Part shown: positions 1 through 9,599 of the stretch, one piece after another
How positions within the stretch are numbered: position 1 is the first letter of the stretch
Layout: each line of letters opens with the position of its first letter
IMG/VR virus record: IMGVR_UViG_2713896901_000003
Span: 1 to 9,599 of that record
From: a virus
Taxonomy: Duplodnaviria > Heunggongvirae > Uroviricota > Caudoviricetes
Reading direction: 5' to 3' (one strand)
Length of the DNA stretch: 9,599 nucleotides
Program-made: the position numbers and the translations under genes
The notes under the pieces: generated by a model
Told to the model about the DNA's origin: nothing
Databases searched by the model: none
What the model saw: only the letters and a program-made list of their open reading frames with translations

Positions 1-24
1 AATTTCAAAGGTTAGTTTTTTCAT
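1..24 (-). CDS. ninB: 5' end of a ninB-like gene; partial, continues past the window start
   Basis: The reverse complement of 1-24 reads ATGAAAAAACTAACCTTTGAAATT, which translates to MKKLTFEI. From memory this matches the N-terminus of lambda/P22 NinB. Only 8 codons fall inside the window. Confidence 0.4.
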
Positions 25-40
25 GACTTCCCTCTCCCCC

Positions 41-72
41 AAATAAAAAGGCCTGCGATTACCAGCAGGCCT
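41..72 (-). terminator. Rho-independent terminator in the tR2 position, between the ren-slot ORF and ninB
   Basis: A perfect 8-bp stem, AGGCCTGC (49-56) pairing with GCAGGCCT (65-72), encloses an 8-nt loop. On the minus strand it is followed by TTTTATTT, the complement of 41-48. It lies 25 nt downstream of the stop of the 98..367 ORF. Confidence 0.7.
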
Positions 73-97
73 GTTATTAGCTCAGTGATGTAGATGG

Positions 98-367
98 TCA
101 TTGCTTCATCTCACTTTCCATTTCATCAATGTCAACGTCATCAGGAAGGTGGGAGCAATACGCCGCTATACCATGATGATTTATCTCATACCCTTTAAAC
201 GTTACCATCTGGCGCGTAATCTCAACTTCGTTCAGGAATCCGCCATCGCATAACTGCCTGGCTATTTTCGATTTGGTCTGGATTATTGGTAGTGCCTGTT
301 CTTTCAAAGCGTATGATATTTGTGCATCCCATGCCTTTTCGAGAATGGCTAATTGTTTTTTATTCAT
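98..367 (-). CDS. Hypothetical 89-aa protein in the ren/nin slot downstream of the helicase
   Basis: Intact ORF. Its start overlaps the helicase stop (ATGA overlap at 364-367). It sits in the operon position that ren occupies in lambda. I do not recognise the protein. Confidence 0.6.
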   Translation of the reverse strand: MNKKQLAILEKAWDAQISYALKEQALPIIQTKSKIARQLCDGGFLNEVEITRQMVTFKGYEINHHGIAAYCSHLPDDVDIDEMESEMKQ

Positions 368-1803
368 CAGAATCCTCCTTTCTTCTTGGACTGCGGTTCC
401 TCGCGTTCACGGCGGCGCATTTCAGCAGACTGTTGGTCTGTGTCATAAATAGCGCCATTTGCCTGAATGCAATACACCGTGCCGGTATTGCCATGACGAT
501 TGAGACGAAGGATTAGTTCGGTTTCACCAGGTGGAACACTGTCATCAAAAGCACCTTCACGATGGATCCCCACCCAATAATCGCAATCCTGTTCAATCTG
601 CCCTGTATCTCGGGAGTCACTTGGTAATGGGCGTTTATTGGTTCGGCTTTCCAGTGCGCGGTTAAGCTGTGTCAGAAGCACAACAACGCAATCAAGCTCT
701 TTGGCAAGGTTCTTCAGTCCTTTGGTGATCATGCCGTAGGCAAGGTCGTTACGATCGGCCTTTTCAGCGGTCATTAGTGTCAGGTAATCGACAAGAATCA
801 TGCCAACGCATCCTTTTTCTCGTTTGATTCGACGGCTTTCGCTGACGATTTGAGCCAAAGATAATCCCGGCGTGTCGTCGATGTAAAGCAGGTCGATTTC
901 ACTCAAGCGATTGGCTGTTTCTATCGCCCTGTTGAAGTCACCATCGTAATCACCCTGATAGCCGTCATCAGCGTCATTTGTCGCCGGAAGGTAAAAAATA
1001 TTCGGGTTAACACCTGACTTCTGCCCTACCAGTTTTTCCAGTATCTGGTCACTTGGCATTTCAAGGCTGAACATCAGAGCGGGCTTTTTCTCATGCACTG
1101 CGCAGTTGATTGCCATCTGGCTGTATAGCGTCGTTTTCCCCATCTTAGGGCGAGCGCCAATGACAAACAGAGAGCCTTTCACCAGACCTTTCGGTGACAG
1201 CATCCTGTCCAGCGATGGGATCCCTGTGCTCATTCCTCGTTGTTCGCCTGACGGGTCAAATCGCTTCTCAAGGTCGCTAACCCAGTCTTCCATGACCTCA
1301 CCAAATGAGCGAAGGCCGCGACGCGATCCGGTTTTTGCATGGTCTGTCAGTTGCGTGAAAATCGCCTGAATAGCTTCGTACTTCTGCGTCGCAGTCATTC
1401 CGTTGCGGGAATAGAGCAATTCCGTCGCTTCAGTCATGCGGTTGATGGCGTAGCGTTCCATTGCGGTTTCGCGAACCTGCATTGCATAGGCAACGATGTT
1501 TGCGGCGCTTGGCGTGTTCTTTGCGATCTCAGCGATATAAGCAAAACCGCCAACAGACGCCGTTAACGATTTACGCTCCAGTTCATCGAAAAGCGTCAGG
1601 CCATCTACTGGCTTTTGCTCCCGGTGCATTCTGATTATTTCTTCGAAAAGGATTTTGTGTGGTCGGCTGTAAAATGAATCAGGCTTCAGCATCGCCAGAA
1701 CTTTCTGGACGCGCTCACTGCTGTCATCATCCAGAAGCAATCCACCAATCACCGCCTGCTCTGCCTCGATGCTATGGGGCGGCGCATAAAAATTATCGGT
1801 CAT
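367..1803 (-). CDS. Phage-encoded DnaB-family replicative DNA helicase (P22 gene 12 type)
   Basis: The N-terminus carries the DnaB-typical motif HSIEAEQAVIGGLLLD. A Walker A motif GARPKMGKTT and a DYLTLM motif are present. Length is about 478 aa. The ORF track begins at a GTG (1818). The ATG at 1801-1803 has a GAGGG ribosome-binding site 7 nt upstream and overlaps the O-like stop, giving ATGACCGATAA. Confidence 0.9.
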   Translation of the reverse strand: MTDNFYAPPHSIEAEQAVIGGLLLDDDSSERVQKVLAMLKPDSFYSRPHKILFEEIIRMHREQKPVDGLTLFDELERKSLTASVGGFAYIAEIAKNTPSAANIVAYAMQVRETAMERYAINRMTEATELLYSRNGMTATQKYEAIQAIFTQLTDHAKTGSRRGLRSFGEVMEDWVSDLEKRFDPSGEQRGMSTGIPSLDRMLSPKGLVKGSLFVIGARPKMGKTTLYSQMAINCAVHEKKPALMFSLEMPSDQILEKLVGQKSGVNPNIFYLPATNDADDGYQGDYDGDFNRAIETANRLSEIDLLYIDDTPGLSLAQIVSESRRIKREKGCVGMILVDYLTLMTAEKADRNDLAYGMITKGLKNLAKELDCVVVLLTQLNRALESRTNKRPLPSDSRDTGQIEQDCDYWVGIHREGAFDDSVPPGETELILRLNRHGNTGTVYCIQANGAIYDTDQQSAEMRRREREEPQSKKKGGF

Positions 1804-2692
1804 CGTGTTCACCCTCACGAACTTTCAGGTAGGTATTATCGTTAAGCAGGAAATCAAATCCCTTTTTGTGCCAGACAGTTCCGCGTTGATGGTTTGGGCG
1901 CTCTTCGAACATCCATCGGCAATTTTCGCCTACGTAGCTCAAATAATTTCTCCAGTCCTGCATCGAGAACCCATGCCCGTCAAGCTGGCGGGTTATAACT
2001 CCGGCTTTGCGCCAGAACGTTCGGATCTGGTTTTTACGCTTGTCATTCAGTGCGCGGATTCTTGGCGCTTCAGGAAGGATTTCGTGGTAAGCATCGACAA
2101 CATCCTGACAGCTGACGGAAGGTTTTTTCTTGTCAGACTTTTTGTCTGCTGTGGCACTCTCTAATACGTCAGTATTAGAGATAATATTATTATATTCTTT
2201 ATCTGTGGTAATTTGCTGGTAATCTGCTGGTACTGTATTGCTTACAGGCATTGGTATTGCTGGCTTTGAGGTGGTAATTTGCTGGTAATCTGCTGGTACA
2301 AAATTTGACTGATAATCGTCATATTTCTCTACCGAGAAAACTGAGAATTTACCGTGTGAAACCCAGTCAATCATGCCGAGTTTTTTGAACTTTCTAAGCA
2401 GGTACTGAACGCGATCTGGTTTGAGTCCTGTTTCAAACGCCAGAGAGTTTCTACCGCCAAGTAGCTTCCCTCTGCCTACCAGAATTTCTCCTGCGTCAGT
2501 CATTACATACTCAGGCGTATGCTTTGCTTTGAGGATTAAGTGAACCCACAGATGCGCTGCTTCTGCGTCCTTGTAAAACGGCACATCCATAATTTTACGG
2601 TGCAGCAAGGCATACCCCTTACCGCTGCTTTGATGCGGTCGTTGTAGCCTTCTGGCCTCTCTGGCTTCGGCTAGATTAGATATGTTACTCAT
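1793..2692 (-). CDS. Replication initiation protein with lambda-O-like function, carrying ori iterons in its coding sequence (resembles P22 gene 18 type)
   Basis: 299-aa ORF immediately upstream of the helicase and translationally coupled to it. It contains an internal direct DNA repeat that encodes the duplicated peptide [10 protein letters not shown]. This is the same arrangement as the lambda ori, which lies inside the O gene. The N-terminus resembles phage replisome-organiser proteins. Confidence 0.8.
2165..2299. repeat. Putative origin of replication: iterons plus an adjacent AT-rich tract inside the O-like gene
   Basis: A perfect 29-bp direct repeat, GTGGTAATTTGCTGGTAATCTGCTGGTAC, occurs at 2205-2233 and again at 2271-2299. 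Each copy holds two GCTGGTA(A/C) iteron cores, and a fifth core, TTGCTGGC, lies between the copies. The flanking tract 2165-2204 (AGAGATAATATTATTATATTCTTTATC) is AT-rich and lies downstream in the O reading direction, as in lambda ori. Confidence 0.65.
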
Positions 2693-2831
2693 GACCTTTC
2701 TCCTTCTGCATCAGCTTCACTTTTTCCAACTCAGCCCGGAATCGACCAGGCTGCTTGAAGCTGGACAGGAAGCGATCACGTAGTATGTGTTTGTGAATTT
2801 TGTCCTGGTAAGGACTGAGTTGTTTTGTCAT
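2685..2831 (-). CDS. Small basic 48-aa ORF between cII and the O-like gene, absent from the ORF track
   Basis: Sequence [48 protein letters not shown]. Its ribosome-binding site and start, AGGAGTAATTATGACAAA, match the lambda O translation start as I recall it. The ORF ends with TAA overlapping the ATG of the O-like gene (GGTCATGAGTAA), which implies translational coupling. Confidence 0.45.
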
Positions 2832-2842
2832 AATTACTCCTG

Positions 2843-2920
2843 TGGATTGATCCAGTAATGACCTCAGAATTCCATCTGGATTTGTTCAGAACGCTCGGTC
2901 TTGCACACCGGGCGTTTTTT
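2843..2920 (+). ncRNA. oop: OOP-like antisense RNA, complementary to the 3' end of cII, with its own intrinsic terminator
   Basis: Plus strand 2843-2920 reads GTGGATTGATCCAGTAATGACCTCAGAATTCCATCTGGATTTGTTCAGAACGCTCGG, followed by a terminator stem CGCTCGGT (2892-2899) pairing with ACCGGGCG (2907-2914) and TTTTTTCTTT (2915-2924). This closely parallels lambda OOP RNA as I recall it. A candidate -10 element, CATAAT, lies at 2829-2834. Confidence 0.6.
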
Positions 2921-3163
2921 CTTTGTGATTCCATCAAGCGCATACTTAAAAGCCCTGCTAATTGGACTGATGTCTGATGCCATTCCGAAAGCACACAAGA
3001 CCGAAGCAATAAACCGCCAGTCCGTTCTGCTTATCTTCGATTCATGACAGCCAATCATCTTTGCCAGACCACGCTGGGTAAGCGTTGACAGGTTGATGAG
3101 TAAATCTGTTTCTGCGCGATCAACGTCACGCTGTGATAGTTTGCTGTAACTTGTTTGTTCCAT
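2864..3163 (-). CDS. cII: CII transcriptional activator, the lysogeny establishment regulator
   Basis: 99 aa. The C-terminus [19 protein letters not shown] matches lambda CII ([17 protein letters not shown]) and the HTH region KSQISR-like motif is present. It sits between cro and O, as in lambda. Confidence 0.9.
3141..3154 (+). promoter_or_regulatory. Putative CII-binding direct repeat, TTGC-N6-TTGT, at a pRE-like promoter directed toward cI
   Basis: TTGC (3141-3144), TGTAAC, TTGT (3151-3154) lie within the first codons of cII. The spacing to the cII start codon (CAT at 3161-3163) is the same as lambda TTGC-N6-TTGC at pRE. There is one mismatch in the second repeat. Confidence 0.4.
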
Positions 3164-3190
3164 TTCTTATGATTTCCAATAGTGAATATT

Positions 3191-3216
3191 ACGCATCTGT
3201 TGATGCGTTTTTTGTG
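3191..3216 (+). terminator. Intrinsic-terminator-like hairpin oriented on the plus strand between cII and cro
   Basis: Stem ACGCATC (3191-3197), loop TGTT, stem GATGCGT (3202-3208), then TTTTT, GTG. On the minus strand the 3' flank is AATATT, which is not a good terminator. Confidence 0.4.
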
Positions 3217-3253
3217 GGGACGAATCATCCCCGACCTGATTGTTTAAAGAGCG
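3216..3253 (-). promoter_or_regulatory. nutR: boxA plus a boxB hairpin immediately downstream of cro
   Basis: The minus strand reads CGCTCTTTAAACA (boxA; 3241-3253), then ATCAGGTC, then GGGGATGATTCGTCCCC (boxB hairpin; 3216-3232). The identical 17-nt boxB recurs on the plus strand at 4948-4964. Confidence 0.7.
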
Positions 3254-3260
3254 GTGTTAC

Positions 3261-3485
3261 TTATGCTGCCTGATTCGGTTTTGGAAACAGGTGTGGCAAA
3301 TCGGGGCGAATTTCGTAAGCCTTGATCTGCCCTCCAGTGGCGTTAACGATGGCGGTAACTTTCTCTGGAGAGACCAACCCGCCTTTCAGCCATTTGTGTA
3401 CTGCTGGCTGCGTTACACCACACTTGTCGGCAAGGCGCTTTTGGCTACCGACAATTTTCAAGGCTCGTTGAATTACTAAATTCAT
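3261..3485 (-). CDS. cro: Cro-like repressor with a small HTH
   Basis: About 74 aa, MNLVIQRALKIVGSQKRLADKCGVTQPAVHKWLKGG..., divergent from cI across the operator region. The ORF track starts at 3506, but that first ATG lies about 1 nt from the predicted pR +1 and has no ribosome-binding site. The ATG at 3483-3485 is preceded by AAGAGGT with proper spacing. Confidence 0.8.
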   Translation of the reverse strand: MNLVIQRALKIVGSQKRLADKCGVTQPAVHKWLKGGLVSPEKVTAIVNATGGQIKAYEIRPDLPHLFPKPNQAA

Positions 3486-3518
3486 GAGCATACCTCTTGT
3501 GGTCATTACTTATAACCA

Positions 3519-3584
3519 AAGATAACTCAAGTTATAAAAAATAGCAATAACCTTTGTTATTTTACTTTGGATAACCGTAGTTAT
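3519..3584. promoter_or_regulatory. oR/pR/pRM immunity control region with three 14-bp operators
   Basis: Three operators: ATAACTCAAGTTAT (3522-3535), ATAACCTTTGTTAT (3547-3560) and ATAACCGTAGTTAT (3571-3584). Centre-to-centre spacings are 25 and 24 bp. pR on the minus strand has -35 TTGCTA (3542-3547), 17 nt of spacer, and -10 TATCTT (3519-3524). A candidate pRM -10, TATAGA (3582-3587), precedes a leaderless cI ATG at 3597. Confidence 0.7.
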
Positions 3585-3596
3585 AGATTTGTGGGT

Positions 3597-4304
3597 ATGA
3601 AAACATTCGCAGAAAGACTAAATGCAGCCATGAGCTCAGCAGGTGTGTCGCAATCACAGCTTGCTGACATGGTTGGAATATCTCAGCCAGCCATACAGAA
3701 GATGTCATCCGGTAAAACAAACGGATCTCGCAAGATGGTTGAATTAGCCAATGCTTTAAAAGTACGCCCTGAATGGCTTAGCTCTGGTATTGGTGAAATG
3801 AGGGATGGTACACATGAAGAACCATCCAATGTCCGTGAATCATCTTTAAAAGCTGTGGTATGGGAAGATATTAAAAGAAACGATGACGAGTTTGTCGCGT
3901 TGCCTCTTCTTAACGTTTCGCTTTCAGCTGGAAACGGTAGCTGCGAGCTAGAGGAATCATCAGAGTTCTCTTTGGTTTTCAGAAAGTACTATCTGAAAAA
4001 GATGGGGGTATCTGAAAGATCAGCCAAGCTAGTTAGGGTTGTAGGGCAAAGCATGGAACCAACGCTTCACGACGGAGATGTTGTTGGTGTTAACACACAA
4101 GATACCACAATCAGAGATGGTAAAACCTACGCTATTTGCCAGTCTGATTTGTTACGAGTAAAAACATTAATCGCCACCCCTACATCGGTGATAATCAGAT
4201 CAATAAATCGCGAAGAGTACCCAGATGAAGTAATGGATAGAGATGAATTTCATGAAACCGTAAGGATTATTGGCAGAGTATTCTGGTCGTCTCATAGTTG
4301 GTAA
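3597..4304 (+). CDS. cI: CI-type prophage repressor: N-terminal HTH, C-terminal S24 LexA-like autopeptidase
   Basis: HTH segment QSQLADMVGISQPAIQKM. Candidate Ala-Gly cleavage site in SLSAGNG. Catalytic Ser in GQSMEPT and Lys in LLRVKTL. The ORF track begins at a TTG (3567) that lies inside OR3. The ATG at 3597 gives a 235-aa leaderless product, as for lambda cI transcribed from pRM. Confidence 0.9.
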   Translation: MKTFAERLNAAMSSAGVSQSQLADMVGISQPAIQKMSSGKTNGSRKMVELANALKVRPEWLSSGIGEMRDGTHEEPSNVRESSLKAVVWEDIKRNDDEFVALPLLNVSLSAGNGSCELEESSEFSLVFRKYYLKKMGVSERSAKLVRVVGQSMEPTLHDGDVVGVNTQDTTIRDGKTYAICQSDLLRVKTLIATPTSVIIRSINREEYPDEVMDRDEFHETVRIIGRVFWSSHSW

Positions 4305-4344
4305 CCGATAATCAGAAGAAGACTTACGGAAGTGCGGAGGGATA

Positions 4345-4641
4345 ATGGAATTTCTGATAGTTTTTGTTGTTGTTTTGGTCATCATTCTTTTTGTTTTGCT
4401 AAGCATTAGCAAAAAGCTATCTCAAATGATTGAACATAGCTCTAATCGCGCAAAAGAAGAAGACCATCTAATTGATATAAAAGAGATTCTCTCTGATATA
4501 AAAATCACATTAGATGAAATAAAATACACAACAGATCTAATTGAACAGTATAAAATACCAACCCCAAACGAAAGAAAAGCAATAGATCAATATCGTATTG
4601 ACTTAGAAATCGACGAAATGCTAAGCAAAAGAAAAGACTAA
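4345..4641 (+). CDS. AT-rich moron encoding a 98-aa bitopic membrane protein: N-terminal TM anchor plus an acidic helical tail. It occupies the rexAB or lysogenic-conversion slot downstream of cI.
   Basis: Strong ribosome-binding site, GGAGGGATAATG. Residues 3-22, FLIVFVVVLVIILFVLLSIS, form a TM helix, followed by KK and a helical tail rich in charged residues. GC content is about 30 %, against about 50 % for the flanks. The gene is 40 nt downstream of cI with no terminator between them, and is followed by a tImm-like terminator. Confidence 0.7.
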   Translation: MEFLIVFVVVLVIILFVLLSISKKLSQMIEHSSNRAKEEDHLIDIKEILSDIKITLDEIKYTTDLIEQYKIPTPNERKAIDQYRIDLEIDEMLSKRKD

Positions 4642-4645
4642 AAAC

Positions 4646-4674
4646 ACCCGGCCTCAGCGCCGGGTTTTCTTTTC
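4646..4674 (+). terminator. tImm-like intrinsic terminator ending the cI-moron transcript; the hairpin is bidirectional
   Basis: Stem CCCGGC (4647-4652), loop CTCAGC, stem GCCGGG (4659-4664), then TTTTCTTTTCC. On the minus strand the same stem is followed by TGTTTTTAG. Confidence 0.8.
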
Positions 4675-4813
4675 CTGCCGTCCCCCACCCAATCAACCAT
4701 CCTCATCATAGACAAGCATCAAGCCAAAGGTAGCACTTTCACCCCGCACGCAAGCCCTCAAACACCAATCAATCAGCAACATTTACAAAAATAAAATACC
4801 TTTGTTATCCATC

Positions 4814-4880
4814 ACTTATAACTTATTTACCATAAAATATAAACTAAGTTATTGACCACACCTATAACCTAAGTTATCTT
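4814..4880 (+). promoter_or_regulatory. oL/pL: early-left promoter with operators
   Basis: -35 TTGACC (4852-4857), 17-nt spacer, -10 TATCTT (4875-4880). OL1 ATAACCTAAGTTAT (4864-4877) lies between the -35 and -10 elements. OL2 ATAAACTAAGTTAT (4839-4852) is centred 25 bp upstream. A degenerate third site lies near 4814-4831. Confidence 0.65.
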
Positions 4881-4926
4881 TAAGCCATCAGCAGGACGCA
4901 GGAAGCCAAACGGAACAGATTGGCAG

Positions 4927-4964
4927 GCTCTTTAACATTGATGGAATGGGGATGATTCGTCCCC
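4927..4964 (+). promoter_or_regulatory. nutL: boxA-like element plus a boxB hairpin
   Basis: GCTCTTTAACA (4927-4937), then TTGATGGAAT, then GGGGATGATTCGTCCCC (4948-4964). The boxB 17-mer is identical to that of nutR. Confidence 0.7.
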
Positions 4965-5119
4965 ACCAAAGAGAGGTTGGCTTTGGGATTTGATGAATGT
5001 GCAGGTCGATGCACTAACGCTTAGCGGTGAGCACCTGCCTTTGGGGCAGGATGGGTAGCCGCAATCAGGAGATCGACACCTGACATCAAATCACCAAAGT
5101 CAATCATCGGAGGTATCCA

Positions 5120-5326
5120 GTGAAAGCAAGAGAGATTCGCAAACTCGAACGCGCTCGTAAGCACAAAGAGGCGACAGCAAAACGTAAAAATATTGACCGT
5201 GTTTCAATGGTGGTTTCGCTAGCAGGAGCGAATAGGAAGAAGGTTGAATGTGGTTCGTGCTGCCTGCCAAACGTAGCTCTTTACGCAGCAGGCTACCGGA
5301 AATCAAAACAACTGACAGCAAGATGA
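5120..5326 (+). CDS. N: Short 68-aa N-like transcription antiterminator
   Basis: It is the first gene downstream of pL and nutL. It uses a GTG start with a GGAGGT ribosome-binding site. The N-terminus MKAREIRKLERARKHKEATAKRKN is an arginine-rich motif. From memory, the C-terminus CLPNVALYAAGYRKSKQLTAR matches the C-terminus of the N proteins of the H-19B/933W phage group. Confidence 0.6.
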   Translation: MKAREIRKLERARKHKEATAKRKNIDRVSMVVSLAGANRKKVECGSCCLPNVALYAAGYRKSKQLTAR

Positions 5327-5387
5327 CTTGTGTTGGTCGCCAGAAAATGAAATTAGGCAGCAAACCACTTATTTGAGAGGAATTAAT

Positions 5388-6011
5388 ATGTCATCAATCC
5401 GCTTAACTACGAGAATGAAAGAGGAAATCGCTCGTAACGCTTTAATTAAGTCTGGGGTTTTCACTGAACTTGAAGAAGTAACAAAGTTAAAGAACCAGCT
5501 TGCACTTGACGCCAGAGTTATTGCGTTTGGCGGAAAAAAGAAAACTGAGGAAGTGGACAAGCTGGCATCAAACTTAATGGCTATAAGTGAAGAACTTCAA
5601 AAGGTGGGATGTTCATTTTACTCATGCGATGTTCGTTCTACATCAATTTATCTGACTGTATCTGGCAGAAGGGTGGGATGGCATTCATATGGGAAAGACG
5701 GCAACGGTGAAGATATATTGCTTCCCACCCCAGAAAAAGATAAATGCATGTTTGATGCAGAACACGAAATAACAAAAAGGTTTGATGAAATCTGCGCATT
5801 GCAACAAAAACTTGAATCCAGGAAAAAGGATATCGAATCAAATGTATGGGCTGCTTTGAACTCAGTCACAACAGTTAAGCGACTTATTGAAGTTTGGCCT
5901 GAAAGCAAAGAATTGCTACCAAAAGAAGCAGATAAAGCAAGTGCAGCACTTCCTGCTTTACGGGTAGAAGATTTGAATAAGATGATTGGACTTCCTTCCG
6001 AGGCCGCATAA
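5388..6011 (+). CDS. Hypothetical 207-aa protein: moron A, non-lambda, in the N-cIII accessory slot
   Basis: Ribosome-binding site AGAGGAATTAATATG. No TM segment. About 38 % GC. The gene is immediately followed by its own intrinsic terminator. I do not recognise the protein. It occupies the position of lambda sieB/ral. Confidence 0.7.
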   Translation: MSSIRLTTRMKEEIARNALIKSGVFTELEEVTKLKNQLALDARVIAFGGKKKTEEVDKLASNLMAISEELQKVGCSFYSCDVRSTSIYLTVSGRRVGWHSYGKDGNGEDILLPTPEKDKCMFDAEHEITKRFDEICALQQKLESRKKDIESNVWAALNSVTTVKRLIEVWPESKELLPKEADKASAALPALRVEDLNKMIGLPSEAA

Positions 6012-6028
6012 TCGGCCTTTATTTTTGG
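6001..6028 (+). terminator. Intrinsic terminator overlapping the moron A stop codon
   Basis: Stem AGGCCG (6001-6006), loop CATAAT (containing the TAA stop), stem CGGCCT (6013-6018), then TTATTTTTGG. Confidence 0.7.
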
Positions 6029-6074
6029 CATAAACAACAGAATAAACACTGCACTGAATTATTTGAGGTTAGAT

Positions 6075-6545
6075 ATGACAAAATCATGGAGCGTACCTTT
6101 TCCTGAATCAGAAACTGAACATGAGGGAATGCCTGTTTTCTGGAGATTCCAGGCGACAGTTGAAGAAGATGGAATCAAAATATTCGCACTTCAATATATA
6201 GCTTTTCATCAGACAGAGCATTATGCATGGTTGGTTCCTGCGCATTGGATTGTTAATTTTAAACCAGCACCAAATCAGTGGTTACAGGAATGGAAACAAA
6301 GGAGAAATAGATATGCAATTAAGAAAGTAGCAAAAAATGCAGAAAGATCTTTTGCATTCCCAACGAAGAAACTTGCCATTGAAAGTTTATTGCGCCGGAA
6401 GAAATACCATTTAATGAGAATCAAACAAGATTTGGCTGTTGTATCAACTCTTGTTGATGGGATGAAGAATATTGATACATCAACACCAGATATTGAATAT
6501 AACTTTGGACACAACCAAGAAACAGAAAATTGGGTGTTTTATTAG
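6075..6545 (+). CDS. Hypothetical 156-aa Trp-rich protein: moron B, non-lambda
   Basis: Ribosome-binding site GAGGT 5 nt before the ATG at 6075. The ORF track uses a TTG at 6063. Seven Trp residues and a basic central region, KQRRNRYAIKKVAKNAERS. I do not recognise the protein. Confidence 0.65.
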   Translation: MTKSWSVPFPESETEHEGMPVFWRFQATVEEDGIKIFALQYIAFHQTEHYAWLVPAHWIVNFKPAPNQWLQEWKQRRNRYAIKKVAKNAERSFAFPTKKLAIESLLRRKKYHLMRIKQDLAVVSTLVDGMKNIDTSTPDIEYNFGHNQETENWVFY

Positions 6546-6649
6546 TACGAATAAGCACTGTGTATTCATTCCAACGAGTGAATACACGGAGCAATGTCGC
6601 TCGTAACTAAACAGGAGCCGACTTGTTCTGATTATTGGAAATCTTCTTT

Positions 6650-6676
6650 GCCCTCTAATGTGAGGGCGATTTTTTA
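6650..6676 (+). terminator. Intrinsic terminator between moron B and the ea10-like gene
   Basis: Stem GCCCTC (6650-6655), loop TAATGT, stem GAGGGC (6662-6667), then GATTTTTTAT. Confidence 0.65.
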
Positions 6677-6695
6677 TCTATGAGGATATGAATAG

Positions 6696-7064
6696 ATGTC
6701 AAACATCAAAAAATACATCATTGATTGCGACTGGAAAGCATCAATAGAAATTGAAATCGACCATGACGTAATGACAGAGGAAAAACTTCACCAGATTAAT
6801 AATTTCTGGTCAGACTCTGAATACCGACTCAATAAACACGGCTCTGTATTAAATGCTGTATTAATCATGCTGGCGCAACATGCTCTGCTTATAGCAATTT
6901 CAAGCGACTTAAATGCATATGGTGTTGTGTGTGAGTTCGACTGGAATGATGGAAATGGTCAGGAAGGATGGCCTCCAATGGATGGTAGCGAAGGAATAAG
7001 AATTACCGATATCGATACATCAGGAATATTTGATTCAGATGATATGACTATCAAAGCCGCCTGA
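6696..7064 (+). CDS. ea10: Highly acidic 122-aa protein in the lambda ea10 position, immediately upstream of cIII
   Basis: The length (369 nt, 122 aa) and the position relative to the lambda-identical cIII, kil and gam genes both match lambda ea10. The protein has a net charge of about -20. The assignment rests on position and size, not on recalled sequence. Confidence 0.55.
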   Translation: MSNIKKYIIDCDWKASIEIEIDHDVMTEEKLHQINNFWSDSEYRLNKHGSVLNAVLIMLAQHALLIAISSDLNAYGVVCEFDWNDGNGQEGWPPMDGSEGIRITDIDTSGIFDSDDMTIKAA

Positions 7065-7088
7065 GCGCTGCGTTACCGCATACCAATA

Positions 7089-7115
7089 ACGCTTCACTCG
7101 AGGCGTTTTTCGTTA
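7089..7115 (+). terminator. Terminator-like hairpin upstream of cIII, in the lambda tL2/tL3 region
   Basis: Stem ACGCTTC (7089-7095), loop ACTC, stem GAGGCGT (7100-7106) with one G-U pair, then TTTTCGTT. Confidence 0.4.
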
Positions 7116-7136
7116 TGTATAAATAAGGAGCACACC

Positions 7137-7301
7137 ATGCAATATGCCATTGCAGGGTGGCCTGTTGCTGGCTGCCCTTCCGAATCTTTACTTGAACGAA
7201 TCACCCGTAAATTACGTGACGGATGGAAACGCCTTATCGACATACTTAATCAGCCAGGAGTCCCAAAAAATGGATCAAACACTTATGGCTATCCAGACTA
7301 A
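7137..7301 (+). CDS. cIII: CIII, the FtsH inhibitor that stabilises CII
   Basis: Translates to [54 protein letters not shown], which is identical to lambda CIII by recollection. Ribosome-binding site AAGGAG. Confidence 0.9.
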   Translation: MQYAIAGWPVAGCPSESLLERITRKLRDGWKRLIDILNQPGVPKNGSNTYGYPD

Positions 7302-7413
7302 ATTCACTATCGCCACTTTTATTGGCGATGAAAAGATGTTTCGTGAGGCCGTCGACGCTTATAAAAAATGGATATTAATACTGAAACTGAGATCAAGCAA
7401 AAGCATTCACTAA
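7270..7413 (+). CDS. kil: Kil, the host-killing and FtsZ-inhibiting peptide
   Basis: [47 protein letters not shown] matches lambda Kil (47 aa). It overlaps the cIII 3' end and the gam 5' end, as in lambda. The ORF track entry 7144..7413 is the same frame extended spuriously upstream. Confidence 0.85.
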
Positions 7414-7784
7414 CCCACTTCCCTGTTTTCCTAATCAGCCCGGCATTTCGCGGGCGATATTTTCACAGCTATTTCAGGAGTTCAGCCATGAACGCTTATT
7501 ACATTCAGGATCGTCTTGAGGCTCAGAGCTGGACGCGTCACTACCAGCAGATCGCCCGTGAAGAGAAAGAGGCAGAACTGGCAGACGACATGGAAAAAGG
7601 CCTGCCCCAGCACCTGTTTGAATCGCTATGCATCGATCATTTGCAACGCCACGGGGCCAGCAAAAAAGCCATTACCCGTGCGTTTGATGACGATGTTGAG
7701 TTTCAGGAGCGCATGGCAGAACACATCCGGTACATGGTTGAAACCATTGCTCACCATCAGGTTGATATTGATTCAGAGGTATAA
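7368..7784 (+). CDS. gam: Gam, the RecBCD inhibitor
   Basis: 138-aa long form, identical or near-identical to lambda Gam. The functional short form GamS starts at the ATG at 7488-7490, which is preceded by an AGGAG ribosome-binding site. Confidence 0.9.
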
Positions 7785-7789
7785 AACGG

Positions 7790-8575
7790 ATGAGTACAGC
7801 ACTCGCAACGCTGGCAGGGAAGCTGGCTGAACGTGTCGGCATGGATTCTGTCGACCCACAGGAACTGATCACCACTCTTCGCCAGACGGCATTTAAAGGT
7901 GATGCCAGCGATGCGCAGTTCATCGCATTGCTGATCGTCGCCAACCAGTACGGCCTTAATCCGTGGACGAAAGAAATTTACGCCTTCCCTGACAAGCAGA
8001 ACGGCATCGTTCCGGTGGTGGGCGTTGATGGCTGGTCCCGCATCATCAATGAAAACCAGCAGTTTGATGGCATGGACTTTGAGCAGGACAATGAATCCTG
8101 TACATGCCGGATTTACCGCAAAGACCGTAATCATCCGATCTGCGTTACCGAATGGATGGATGAATGCCGCCGCGAACCATTCAAAACCCGCGAAGGCAGA
8201 GAAATCACCGGACCGTGGCAGTCGCATCCCAAACGGATGTTACGGCATAAAGCCATGATTCAGTGTGCCCGTCTGGCCTTCGGATTTGCTGGTATCTATG
8301 ACAAGGATGAAGCCGAGCGCATTGTCGAAAATACCGCATACACTGCAGAACGTCAGCCGGAACGCGACATCACTCCGGTTAACGATGAAACCATGCAGGA
8401 GATTAACACTCTGCTGATTGCCCTGGACAAAACATGGGATGACGACTTATTGCCGCTCTGTTCCCAGATATTTCGCCGCGACATTCGCGCATCGTCAGAA
8501 CTGACACAGGCCGAAGCAGTGAAAGCTCTTGGATTCCTGAAACAGAAAGCCTCTGAACAGAAGGTGGCTGCATGA
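7790..8575 (+). CDS. bet: Bet, the Red-beta single-strand annealing protein
   Basis: 261 aa, [72 protein letters not shown]..., lambda Bet by recollection. Confidence 0.95.
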
Positions 8576-9252
8576 CACCGGACATTATCCTGCAGCGTAC
8601 CGGGATCGACGTGAGAGCTGTCGAACAGGGGGATGATGCGTGGCACAAATTACGGCTCGGCGTCATTACAGCTTCAGAAGTTCACAACGTGATAGCAAAA
8701 CCCCGATCCGGAAAGAAATGGCCTGACATGAAAATGTCCTACTTCCACACCCTGCTTGCTGAGGTTTGCACCGGTGTGGCTCCGGAAGTTAATGCTAAGG
8801 CGCTGGCCTGGGGAAAACAGTACGAGAACGACGCCAGAACCCTGTTTGAATTCACTTCCGGCGTGAATGTTACTGAATCCCCGATCATCTATCGCGACGA
8901 AAGTATGCGCACCGCCTGCTCTCCCGATGGTTTATGCAGTGACGGCAATGGCCTTGAGCTGAAATGCCCGTTTACCTCCCGGGATTTCATGAAGTTCCGG
9001 CTCGGTGGTTTCGAGGCCATAAAGTCGGCTTACATGGCCCAGGTGCAGTACAGCATGTGGGTGACGCGAAAAGATGCCTGGTACTTTGCCAACTATGACC
9101 CGCGAATGAAGCGTGAAGGCCTGCATTATGTCGTGGTTGAGCGGGATGAAAAGTACATAGCGAGTTTTGACGAGATGGTGCCGGAGTTCATCGAAAAAAT
9201 GGACGAGGCACTAGCTGAAATTGGTTTTGTATTTGGGGAGCAATGGCGATGA
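8572..9252 (+). CDS. exo: Exo, the Red-alpha 5'-3' exonuclease
   Basis: 226 aa, [43 protein letters not shown]..., lambda Exo. It overlaps the bet stop through an ATGA overlap. Confidence 0.95.
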
Positions 9253-9431
9253 AGCATCCTCACGATAATATCCGGGTAGGCGCGATAACTTTCGTCTACT
9301 CCGTTACAAAGCGAGGCTGGGTATTTCCCGGCCTTTCTGTTATCCGAAATCCACTGAAAGCACAGCGGCTGGCTGAAGAGATAAATAATAAACGAGGGAC
9401 TGTATGCACAAAGCATCTCCTGTTGAATTAA
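9243..9431 (+). CDS. Lambda orf61-like small protein
   Basis: 62 aa, [52 protein letters not shown]..., in the position immediately after exo, as for lambda orf61. Confidence 0.65.
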
Positions 9432-9595
9432 GAACGAGTATCGGGATGGCACATAGCCTCGCTCAAATTGGAGTCAGGTTTGTGCCAATACCAGTAGAAA
9501 CAGACGAAGAATTTCATACGTTAGCCACATCCCTTTCACAAAAGCTGGAAATGATGGCGGCGAAAGCAGAAGCAAACGAGAGAGACCCGGCATGA
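9404..9595 (+). CDS. Lambda orf63-like small protein
   Basis: 63 aa, [41 protein letters not shown]..., in the position of lambda orf63. A further ATG at 9592 (ATGACAAC) begins the next small ORF, orf60a-like, which is cut by the window end. Confidence 0.65.
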   Translation: MHKASPVELRTSIGMAHSLAQIGVRFVPIPVETDEEFHTLATSLSQKLEMMAAKAEANERDPA

Positions 9596-9599
9596 CAAC

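Follow-up and report, generated by a model that had tools for sequence, protein, structure and literature searches.

The interval between the cI repressor gene and the N gene of lambdoid prophages has already yielded rexAB, Stk, Hex and BstA. It is a recognized mosaic hotspot, with BstA found in the same place (PMC8585504), and the accessory genes that are cotranscribed with the repressor, i.e. rexAB, 933W stk, 434 hex and K139 glo, serve mostly exclusion functions (PMC3564112). We analyzed the occupant of this interval in a stretch of 9,599 nucleotides from a virus of the class Caudoviricetes (IMG/VR record IMGVR_UViG_2713896901_000003, positions 1 to 9,599; hereafter, the window). The occupant is an open reading frame (ORF) at positions 4345-4641 that encodes a 98-amino-acid (aa) protein, which is probably anchored in the inner membrane by a single N-terminal helix.

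With lambda rexA-rexB, the ORF shares the map position after cI, the strand and a terminator before oL/pL and N, as well as the expected expression from the repressor promoters and the involvement of a membrane component. However, the lambda system consists of two genes, which encode the four-helix RexB and the cytoplasmic sensor RexA, whereas here there is one 98-aa protein with one helix, and no Rex family was found among its Pfam or PHROG matches at E-values (E) up to 1. The rexAB system acts by abortive infection; for the 98-aa protein, this is a candidate role that position alone suggests. BstA, from Salmonella phage BTP1 and its relatives, is strikingly tied to the site downstream of the prophage repressor, and its gene presumably uses the repressor promoter and then its own terminator (PMC8585504). 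Both the link of a family to the position behind the repressor and the terminator after the gene are thus common to BstA and the present ORF, but BstA, an abortive-infection protein that has a cognate aba element, is large, soluble and associated with DNA and lacks a membrane anchor, and the 98-aa protein, which is far smaller, has no relevant match to the BstA family in Pfam, PHROG or PADLOC. The Hex gene of phage 434 is part of the pRM transcript, on the 3' side of the repressor, and its product is an accessory protein that acts on RecA-stimulated repressor cleavage (PMC3564112). The comparison with Hex covered position and role: hex is a 158-aa ORF that overlaps the repressor gene, and a membrane is never mentioned for Hex in that report (PMC3564112).

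P22 SieA, HK97 gp15, T4 Imm and Lactococcus Sie2009 provide a different comparison, as small, single-gene prophage membrane proteins made in the lysogen. Genes of the Sie2009 type also adjoin the repressor. These proteins show no similarity to the 98-aa protein in sequence or fold, and in the latter, the prediction places the conserved domain in the cytoplasm. SieA contains three helices, and its gene is located elsewhere in the genome (PMC10883804). In its placement, the ORF resembles lambda rexAB, 933W stk, 434 hex and BstA, but sequence and architecture set it apart from the families of rexAB, stk and BstA, and architecture sets it apart from hex.

A selected gene in the slot behind the repressor

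ORF 4345-4641 is a genuine protein-coding gene under purifying selection. When the copy in the window was compared with three Citrobacter-type copies (80-81% DNA identity and 73-76% protein identity), the ratio of nonsynonymous to synonymous substitution rates (dN/dS) was 0.17-0.19 for the whole ORF, 0.04-0.07 for residues 43-94 (dS about 0.9-1.2) and 0.27-0.44 for the linker, residues 25-42, which is the least constrained segment. These dN/dS values rule out a spurious ORF. An overlapping ORF on the minus strand (4505-4696) was rejected as well because the conservation tracks the plus-strand frame.

The gene order in the window is the lambda order, cI, rexAB, tImm, oL/pL and N, and the ORF occupies the rexAB position, between cI and oL/pL and on the same strand, i.e. 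the slot of repressor-cotranscribed accessory genes. The first-pass annotation, made from the sequence without database searches, had assigned the ORF to this position, directly behind cI and with no intervening terminator, and had described its own ribosome-binding site and a tImm-like terminator just before oL. The position and the order are as described: 40 bp separate the cI stop from the ORF start, and a sequence scan found no terminator-like site in this gap. The GGAGGG motif is present as well, but no more than 3-4 nt separate it from the ATG. A terminator is likewise there, with a hairpin of 7 bp, 6 of which are G-C pairs (folding energy −13.7 kcal/mol, z = −2.47), but it does not immediately precede oL, from which it is separated by about 175 bp that are occupied by a C-rich, G-poor tract.

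Promoter-like matches across the region were not above chance (4 compared to 4.3 expected from shuffled sequence), and none lies between cI and the ORF; the nearest match (4270-4298, 9/12), itself at chance level, is inside cI. Because it has no promoter of its own, the ORF probably depends on the repressor transcript, of which it would be the second gene and which would start at pRM in the lysogen and at pRE during establishment. Without a promoter, a cassette can be expressed in the lysogen only within the repressor operon, and this dependence would explain the invariable position behind cI. The terminator of the cassette would keep the repressor transcript out of the pL operon.

The base composition of the ORF is distinct from that of its surroundings. 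Its GC content is 30.0% (26% at third codon positions), the lowest of any 297-nt stretch anywhere in the window, compared to a mean of 45% for the window and 43% for cI; thus, the earlier estimate of about 30% for the gene was accurate, whereas that of about 50% for the window was too high. By blastn, similarity (80-81%) to four Citrobacter-type loci, of which one belongs to a Citrobacter freundii genome and three to metagenome or read-archive assemblies, spans exactly positions 4335-4668, i.e. the ribosome-binding site, the ORF and the terminator hairpin, and the repressors beside the Citrobacter-type copies are only about 21% identical to cI of the window. The sequence comparisons thus delimit a discrete portable cassette of 334 bp.

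Comparison with phage SH2026Stx1, whose cI is about 92% identical in DNA to that of the window, delimits a variable slot: similarity ends at 4306 and restarts at 4777, and the slot of SH2026Stx1 contains a DUF3024 gene and two other ORFs instead of the cassette. The cassette is absent also from phage PA28, whose cI is about 78% identical in DNA, so that the suggestion that related prophages might carry different cargo at this junction was borne out. In PA28 (NC_041935), there is a 700-bp gap between cI and N without an annotated gene and with an 88-aa ORF on the opposite strand (L042, 2445-2711, minus strand). The name moron, which the first-pass annotation gave to the element, fits loosely. 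Like the morons described by Hendrix, the cassette is a sharp-edged, discrete insertion between two conserved genes, with a deviant GC content and its own terminator, and it is present in some relatives and absent from others (SH2026Stx1, PA28). The promoter is where the likeness fails: a classical moron has its own, whereas the cassette has no detectable promoter and relies on the operon that received it.

To characterize the position of the gene, we considered the window, one chromosomal locus of Escherichia coli (L001), 33 viral contigs, five Citrobacter-type loci and one further locus. In the enterobacterial loci examined, the gene lies 1-44 bp downstream of a repressor ORF with helix-turn-helix and S24 domains and upstream of an N-like gene, the sole exception to repressor adjacency being a copy disrupted by an insertion sequence (IS). 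Family members that are only 47%, 43% and 36% identical to the window protein show the same arrangement, and the partner repressors can be sorted into seven types with mutual identities of 20-70%. Immediately behind the gene, a hairpin/T-run terminator is present also in L039 and L041; the scan did not detect one after the gene in L040. The two most remote members with a readable context (at most 33% identity) are not beside a repressor, so that the linkage is a property of the enterobacterial lambdoid branch and not necessarily of the whole family. These relatives, which are found outside the enterobacteria, are located at L043 5001-5351 (Pelagicoccus sp.) and L044 1229-1570, and one of them follows a gene for a SHOCT-domain protein; a conserved partner gene was considered for the two contexts and rejected, the neighbors being mutually unrelated.

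Among 5,426 complete E. coli genomes, the cassette was found in 99 (about 2%), always in the chromosome and full-length in 98 of the 99; cI at least 95% identical to that of the window is present in 106 of the genomes, a number close to that of the cassette carriers. The carriers include O26 and O111 strains that produce Shiga toxin (Stx), and one sequenced Stx1a-converting phage, LC744178, has the cassette. In the O26:H11 strain 11368 (L047, 3.28-3.31 Mb), cI and the cassette are inside a P22-like prophage whose integrase gene is a pseudogene with an internal stop; this prophage may be unable to excise and yet retains both intact. In E. coli strain 3CM (L046, 2798-4026), an IS3-family transposase gene is inserted in the 5' part of the family gene, which leaves a 75-aa remnant without the membrane helix. 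In Citrobacter-type loci, the cassette is followed by an opposite-strand ORF of 68-75 aa that starts exactly at the end of the similarity to the window (L004 6324-6530, L006 6324-6548, L008 6324-6548 and L045 4733-4960, all on the minus strand). The copies in L006 and L045 match phrog_3975 (function unknown, E about 2e-35), and the window has no counterpart.

Protein family and predicted architecture

The first-pass annotation could not assign the protein to any named family, and the searches agree: the protein belongs, by sequence, to an existing but unannotated PHROG family. The match to phrog_18389 is full-length (residues 1-98 to profile positions 1-98, E = 1.8e-61, 205 bits), but this family has no annotated function, so that membership provides a label and no mechanism. 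Pfam and NCBIfam yielded nothing above threshold for the 98-aa protein, and sub-threshold matches of DUF5385, MscL and ZorB to the hydrophobic helix were dismissed as compositional. None of the defense models of PADLOC-DB v2 gave a significant match, the only hit being ZorB3 (E = 0.013, 13 bits), to residues 4-55, i.e. the helix and the adjoining linker. Foldseek searches against PDB and BFVD found no match, and a profile search of PDB returned designed multi-helix coiled coils and sodium-channel helices, which were likewise set aside as compositional. A literature search, limited to one RefSeq accession and topical keywords, found no paper characterizing the protein.

A word-indexed search of 5.8 billion proteins recovered 11 clusters, from E. 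coli and Citrobacter only, and an exhaustive profile search of 1.84 billion representatives recovered 14 proteins of 94-126 aa, including one remote member from Pelagicoccus (Verrucomicrobiota). No relatives were recovered in a contig scan that covered a single representative genome for each species, presumably because strain-specific prophages are left out of such a set. All 14 proteins share a common build, in which a hydrophobic helix at the N-terminus is followed by a linker that varies and by a conserved core with the motif I-[KR]-Y-x-T-D-x-I-E-x-Y-K-L-P-x3-E-R-x2-[IL]-D-x4-D-x-E-[IV], in which Y69, P72, D81 and E88 are invariant across the family. Both the architecture and the motif are kept down to 23-36% identity.

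In the 98-aa protein, the predicted segments are a hydrophobic helix (residues 3-22), a variable linker (25-42) and a conserved coiled-coil hairpin (43-97). The 20-residue helix followed by KK and the charged, helix-prone tail, both recognized in the first reading of the sequence, are well founded: the helix has a mean Kyte-Doolittle hydropathy of 3.67, and the remainder is predicted to be helical and is acidic. AlphaFold2 models had a predicted local distance difference test (pLDDT) score of 80-81 and a predicted template modeling (pTM) score of about 0.3, and because of the low pTM, the secondary structure is more reliable than the tertiary packing. In the model, one helix continues from the membrane segment up to approximately residue 68, a C-terminal helix occupies residues 74-97, and the turn between the two (69-73, YKIPT) corresponds to the conserved turn motif Y-K-[LI]-P-x3-E-R. 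Residues 42-66 form a clean a/d heptad pattern (L42, I45, L49, I52, L56, I59, T63 and I66), and hydrophobicity at these positions is conserved family-wide, which suggests that the helical hairpin probably self-associates.

All 18 family members analyzed for this feature have no K or R before the hydrophobic helix and 1-4 K or R in the 15 positions behind it. Under the positive-inside rule, such a pattern predicts that the orientation is N-out/C-in and that the conserved domain, which is acidic with a net charge of −2 to −9, faces the cytoplasm. The membrane helix consists of aliphatic residues only and has no polar or charged ones that could line a pore. A signal peptide or lipoprotein was rejected because the protein has no cysteine, lipobox or positively charged N-region; a holin, a spanin and a type I toxin were rejected for the lack of family matches and the wrong genomic location.

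Features around the cassette

Positions of the features are given in Table 1. The TAAC-N4-GTTA pattern of the operator-like palindromes has 5 exact matches in the window, compared to 0.56 expected. In the cI product, Pfam identified Peptidase_S24 (E = 3.6e-17) and HTH_3 (E = 7.7e-07), and the identical 235-aa protein is annotated in RefSeq. For the divergent cro-like gene, the top Pfam match is YdaS_toxin (E = 1.5e-17), with P22_Cro ranking behind it and under the gathering threshold. A search for RNA families (Rfam) within 3200-5400 found none.

Table 1 Features between the cro-like and N-like genes, with positions in the window.
Feature	Position	Strand	Basis
cro-like repressor gene, divergent from cI	3261-3506	-	Pfam YdaS_toxin/HTH_3/P22_Cro, phrog_35
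oR, three TAAC-N4-GTTA operator-like palindromes	3523-3534, 3548-3559, 3572-3583	.	pattern search
cI-type repressor gene, 235 aa, helix-turn-helix and S24 autopeptidase	3597-4304	+	phrog_4, Pfam
Variable slot, cI end to oL region	4307-4776	.	comparison with phage SH2026Stx1
Portable 334-bp cassette (ribosome-binding site, ORF, terminator hairpin)	4335-4668	+	blastn
Shine-Dalgarno-like GGAGGG, about 3-4 nt 5' of ATG	4336-4341	+	read from sequence
98-aa ORF, ATG start, TAA stop	4345-4641	+	ORF list; phrog_18389
Intrinsic terminator, tImm equivalent: hairpin 4646-4665, then TTTCTTTT	4646-4675	+	scan
C-rich, G-poor tract between terminator and oL	4669-4790	+	composition: 38.5% C, 9.8% G
oL operators, overlapping pL-like promoter	4840-4851 (one mismatch), 4865-4876	+	pattern search
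pL-like promoter TTGACC-17-TATCTT	4852-4880	+	sequence scan
N-like antiterminator gene, first gene of pL operon	5120-5326	+	Pfam N_peptide E 2.7e-16; phrog_271

The terminator hairpin was flagged on both strands, with the T-run on the plus strand and GTTTTT on the minus strand, and it may be bidirectional. The C-rich tract has the most extreme C/G ratio of the window; it is part of the variable slot of E. coli and lies outside the cassette shared with Citrobacter. In composition, it resembles a rho utilization (rut) site and might be a back-up terminator for the repressor transcript. The N-like ORF is at most 68 aa long (with a GTG start) and aligns only to positions 44-100 of the Pfam N_peptide profile; RefSeq annotates its C-terminal remnant as a partial 'regulator' pseudogene in strain E2865. 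Directly after N, positions 5388-6011 encode a full-length Nmad5 protein (nucleotide modification associated domain 5; Pfam PF18757, E = 2.2e-70; phrog_1965, function unknown), which is unusual at the start of a pL operon.

Candidate functions of the protein

A role in exclusion or defense is a candidate, drawn from position and analogy only. The reading that we tentatively favor, with a probability of roughly 0.35, is a non-lethal block that would act from the cytoplasmic face of the membrane by binding a conserved component. The protein would be anchored such that 2 residues at the N-terminus protrude outside and some 75 residues extend into the cytoplasm, and the conserved hairpin, held at the cytoplasmic membrane face, would bind a conserved inner-membrane or early-infection component. 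This binding would block genome entry or early development of an incoming phage, and the lysogen would be protected from superinfecting phages without the cell being killed. There is established precedent for a block of DNA entry by a single inner-membrane protein (PMC10883804), and the retention of an intact copy in 98 of the 99 carrier genomes counts in favor of such a block. Several observations weigh against it. No similarity to a known exclusion or defense protein was found in sequence or fold (PADLOC, Pfam, annotated PHROGs, PDB), and the most remote relatives, as described above, are not linked to a repressor. The topology is based on the positive-inside rule alone, and a cytoplasm-facing domain is less obviously placed than a periplasmic one to disturb an injection apparatus. 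Finally, the soluble domain is very strongly conserved across hosts, unlike many phage-sensing proteins, which diversify, and such conservation fits a host target outside defense equally well.

The last point leads to an alternative that we consider unlikely but worth weighing seriously, namely that the protein is a lysogenic-conversion factor unrelated to phages. Like the small membrane-protein regulators of bacteria, it would modulate an inner-membrane transporter, sensor kinase or protease of the host and alter host physiology to the benefit of the lysogen. The cytoplasmic domain is very strongly conserved (dN/dS 0.04-0.07) in E. coli, in Citrobacter and in hosts more distant than these, which suggests a partner that is itself conserved and slow to evolve, e.g. 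a host protein; a single helix with a short soluble domain suits this role, as do the intact gene in an apparently defective prophage and the remote relatives without a recognizable repressor context. However, Pfam and NCBIfam scans revealed no similarity to known regulators, and the characterized genes of the slot have mostly exclusion functions.

The first-pass annotation leaned towards effectors that collapse the membrane potential, for which we found no specific support: the helix is aliphatic, and the conserved part is the soluble, predicted cytoplasmic domain. In the abortive-infection scheme, a phage would trigger a membrane oligomer that dissipates the potential, and the cell would die before the phage completes its cycle. 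The slot is that of rexAB (PMC8585504), the protein has a membrane anchor, the Leu/Ile heptad right after the helix would favor parallel oligomers, and designed multi-helix coiled coils are its top sequence matches in PDB. Nevertheless, we regard this scheme as doubtful and rank a pore-forming mechanism below the non-lethal block because the helix is nonpolar throughout, selection is focused on the soluble domain rather than on the helix, and the single-gene cassette lacks a separate sensor partner of the RexA/RexB kind. PADLOC, furthermore, gave no match to known membrane effectors.

An accessory role in the lysogeny switch, similar to that of Hex, is a further serious alternative, although it appears rather improbable as well. 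Here the target would not be other phages; instead, the protein would influence the RecA-dependent cleavage of the repressor, how often the prophage is induced or how lysogeny is established, for instance by way of a membrane protease like FtsH. In enterobacterial phages, the gene is always tied to self-cleaving repressors of the S24 type, across seven immunity types, with gaps down to 1-15 bp that suggest translational coupling, and Hex, encoded on the pRM transcript, stabilizes lysogens (PMC3564112). However, the same protein (74-76% identical) is paired with repressors that are only about 21% identical, so that a specific contact with the repressor is unlikely, and phages with a virtually identical cI manage without the gene; moreover, a promoterless cassette needs the repressor operon for expression in the lysogen, which explains the linkage without a functional tie. 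That the ORF is a functionless or decaying hitch-hiker carried with the immunity module is highly improbable: although the family is small, narrowly distributed and of no known function, with occasional disrupted copies (the IS3 insertion and a 5-aa deletion), the strong purifying selection already disfavors this view, as do the architecture and motif maintained at low identity and the 98 of 99 full-length E. coli copies.

A broader proposal, which we regard as a long shot, is that the family is a hitherto unrecognized kind of single-gene, promoterless module obligately coupled to S24-type repressor operons, whose product is a type III (N-out/C-in) membrane-tethered, oligomerizing coiled coil. 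Such a module would represent either a new minimal anti-phage mechanism at the cytoplasmic membrane face or a link between the lysogeny switch and the membrane (e.g. through RecA-, FtsH- or entry-related steps) across many immunity types.

The presence of a gene in this slot will not in itself surprise a specialist because the hotspot is a recognized one. What is new is a compact, uncharacterized occupant with unusually clean evidence of selection and a position that does not change across seven immunity types; its small size (98 aa, 334 bp) makes it an inexpensive and easy candidate for experiments. Should the protein modulate the host or the switch, it could bear on prophage stability in lineages that carry Stx phages. 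Should it exclude phages, it would be among the smallest single-gene systems known and could have consequences for phage therapy or for the typing of these pathogens by phages.

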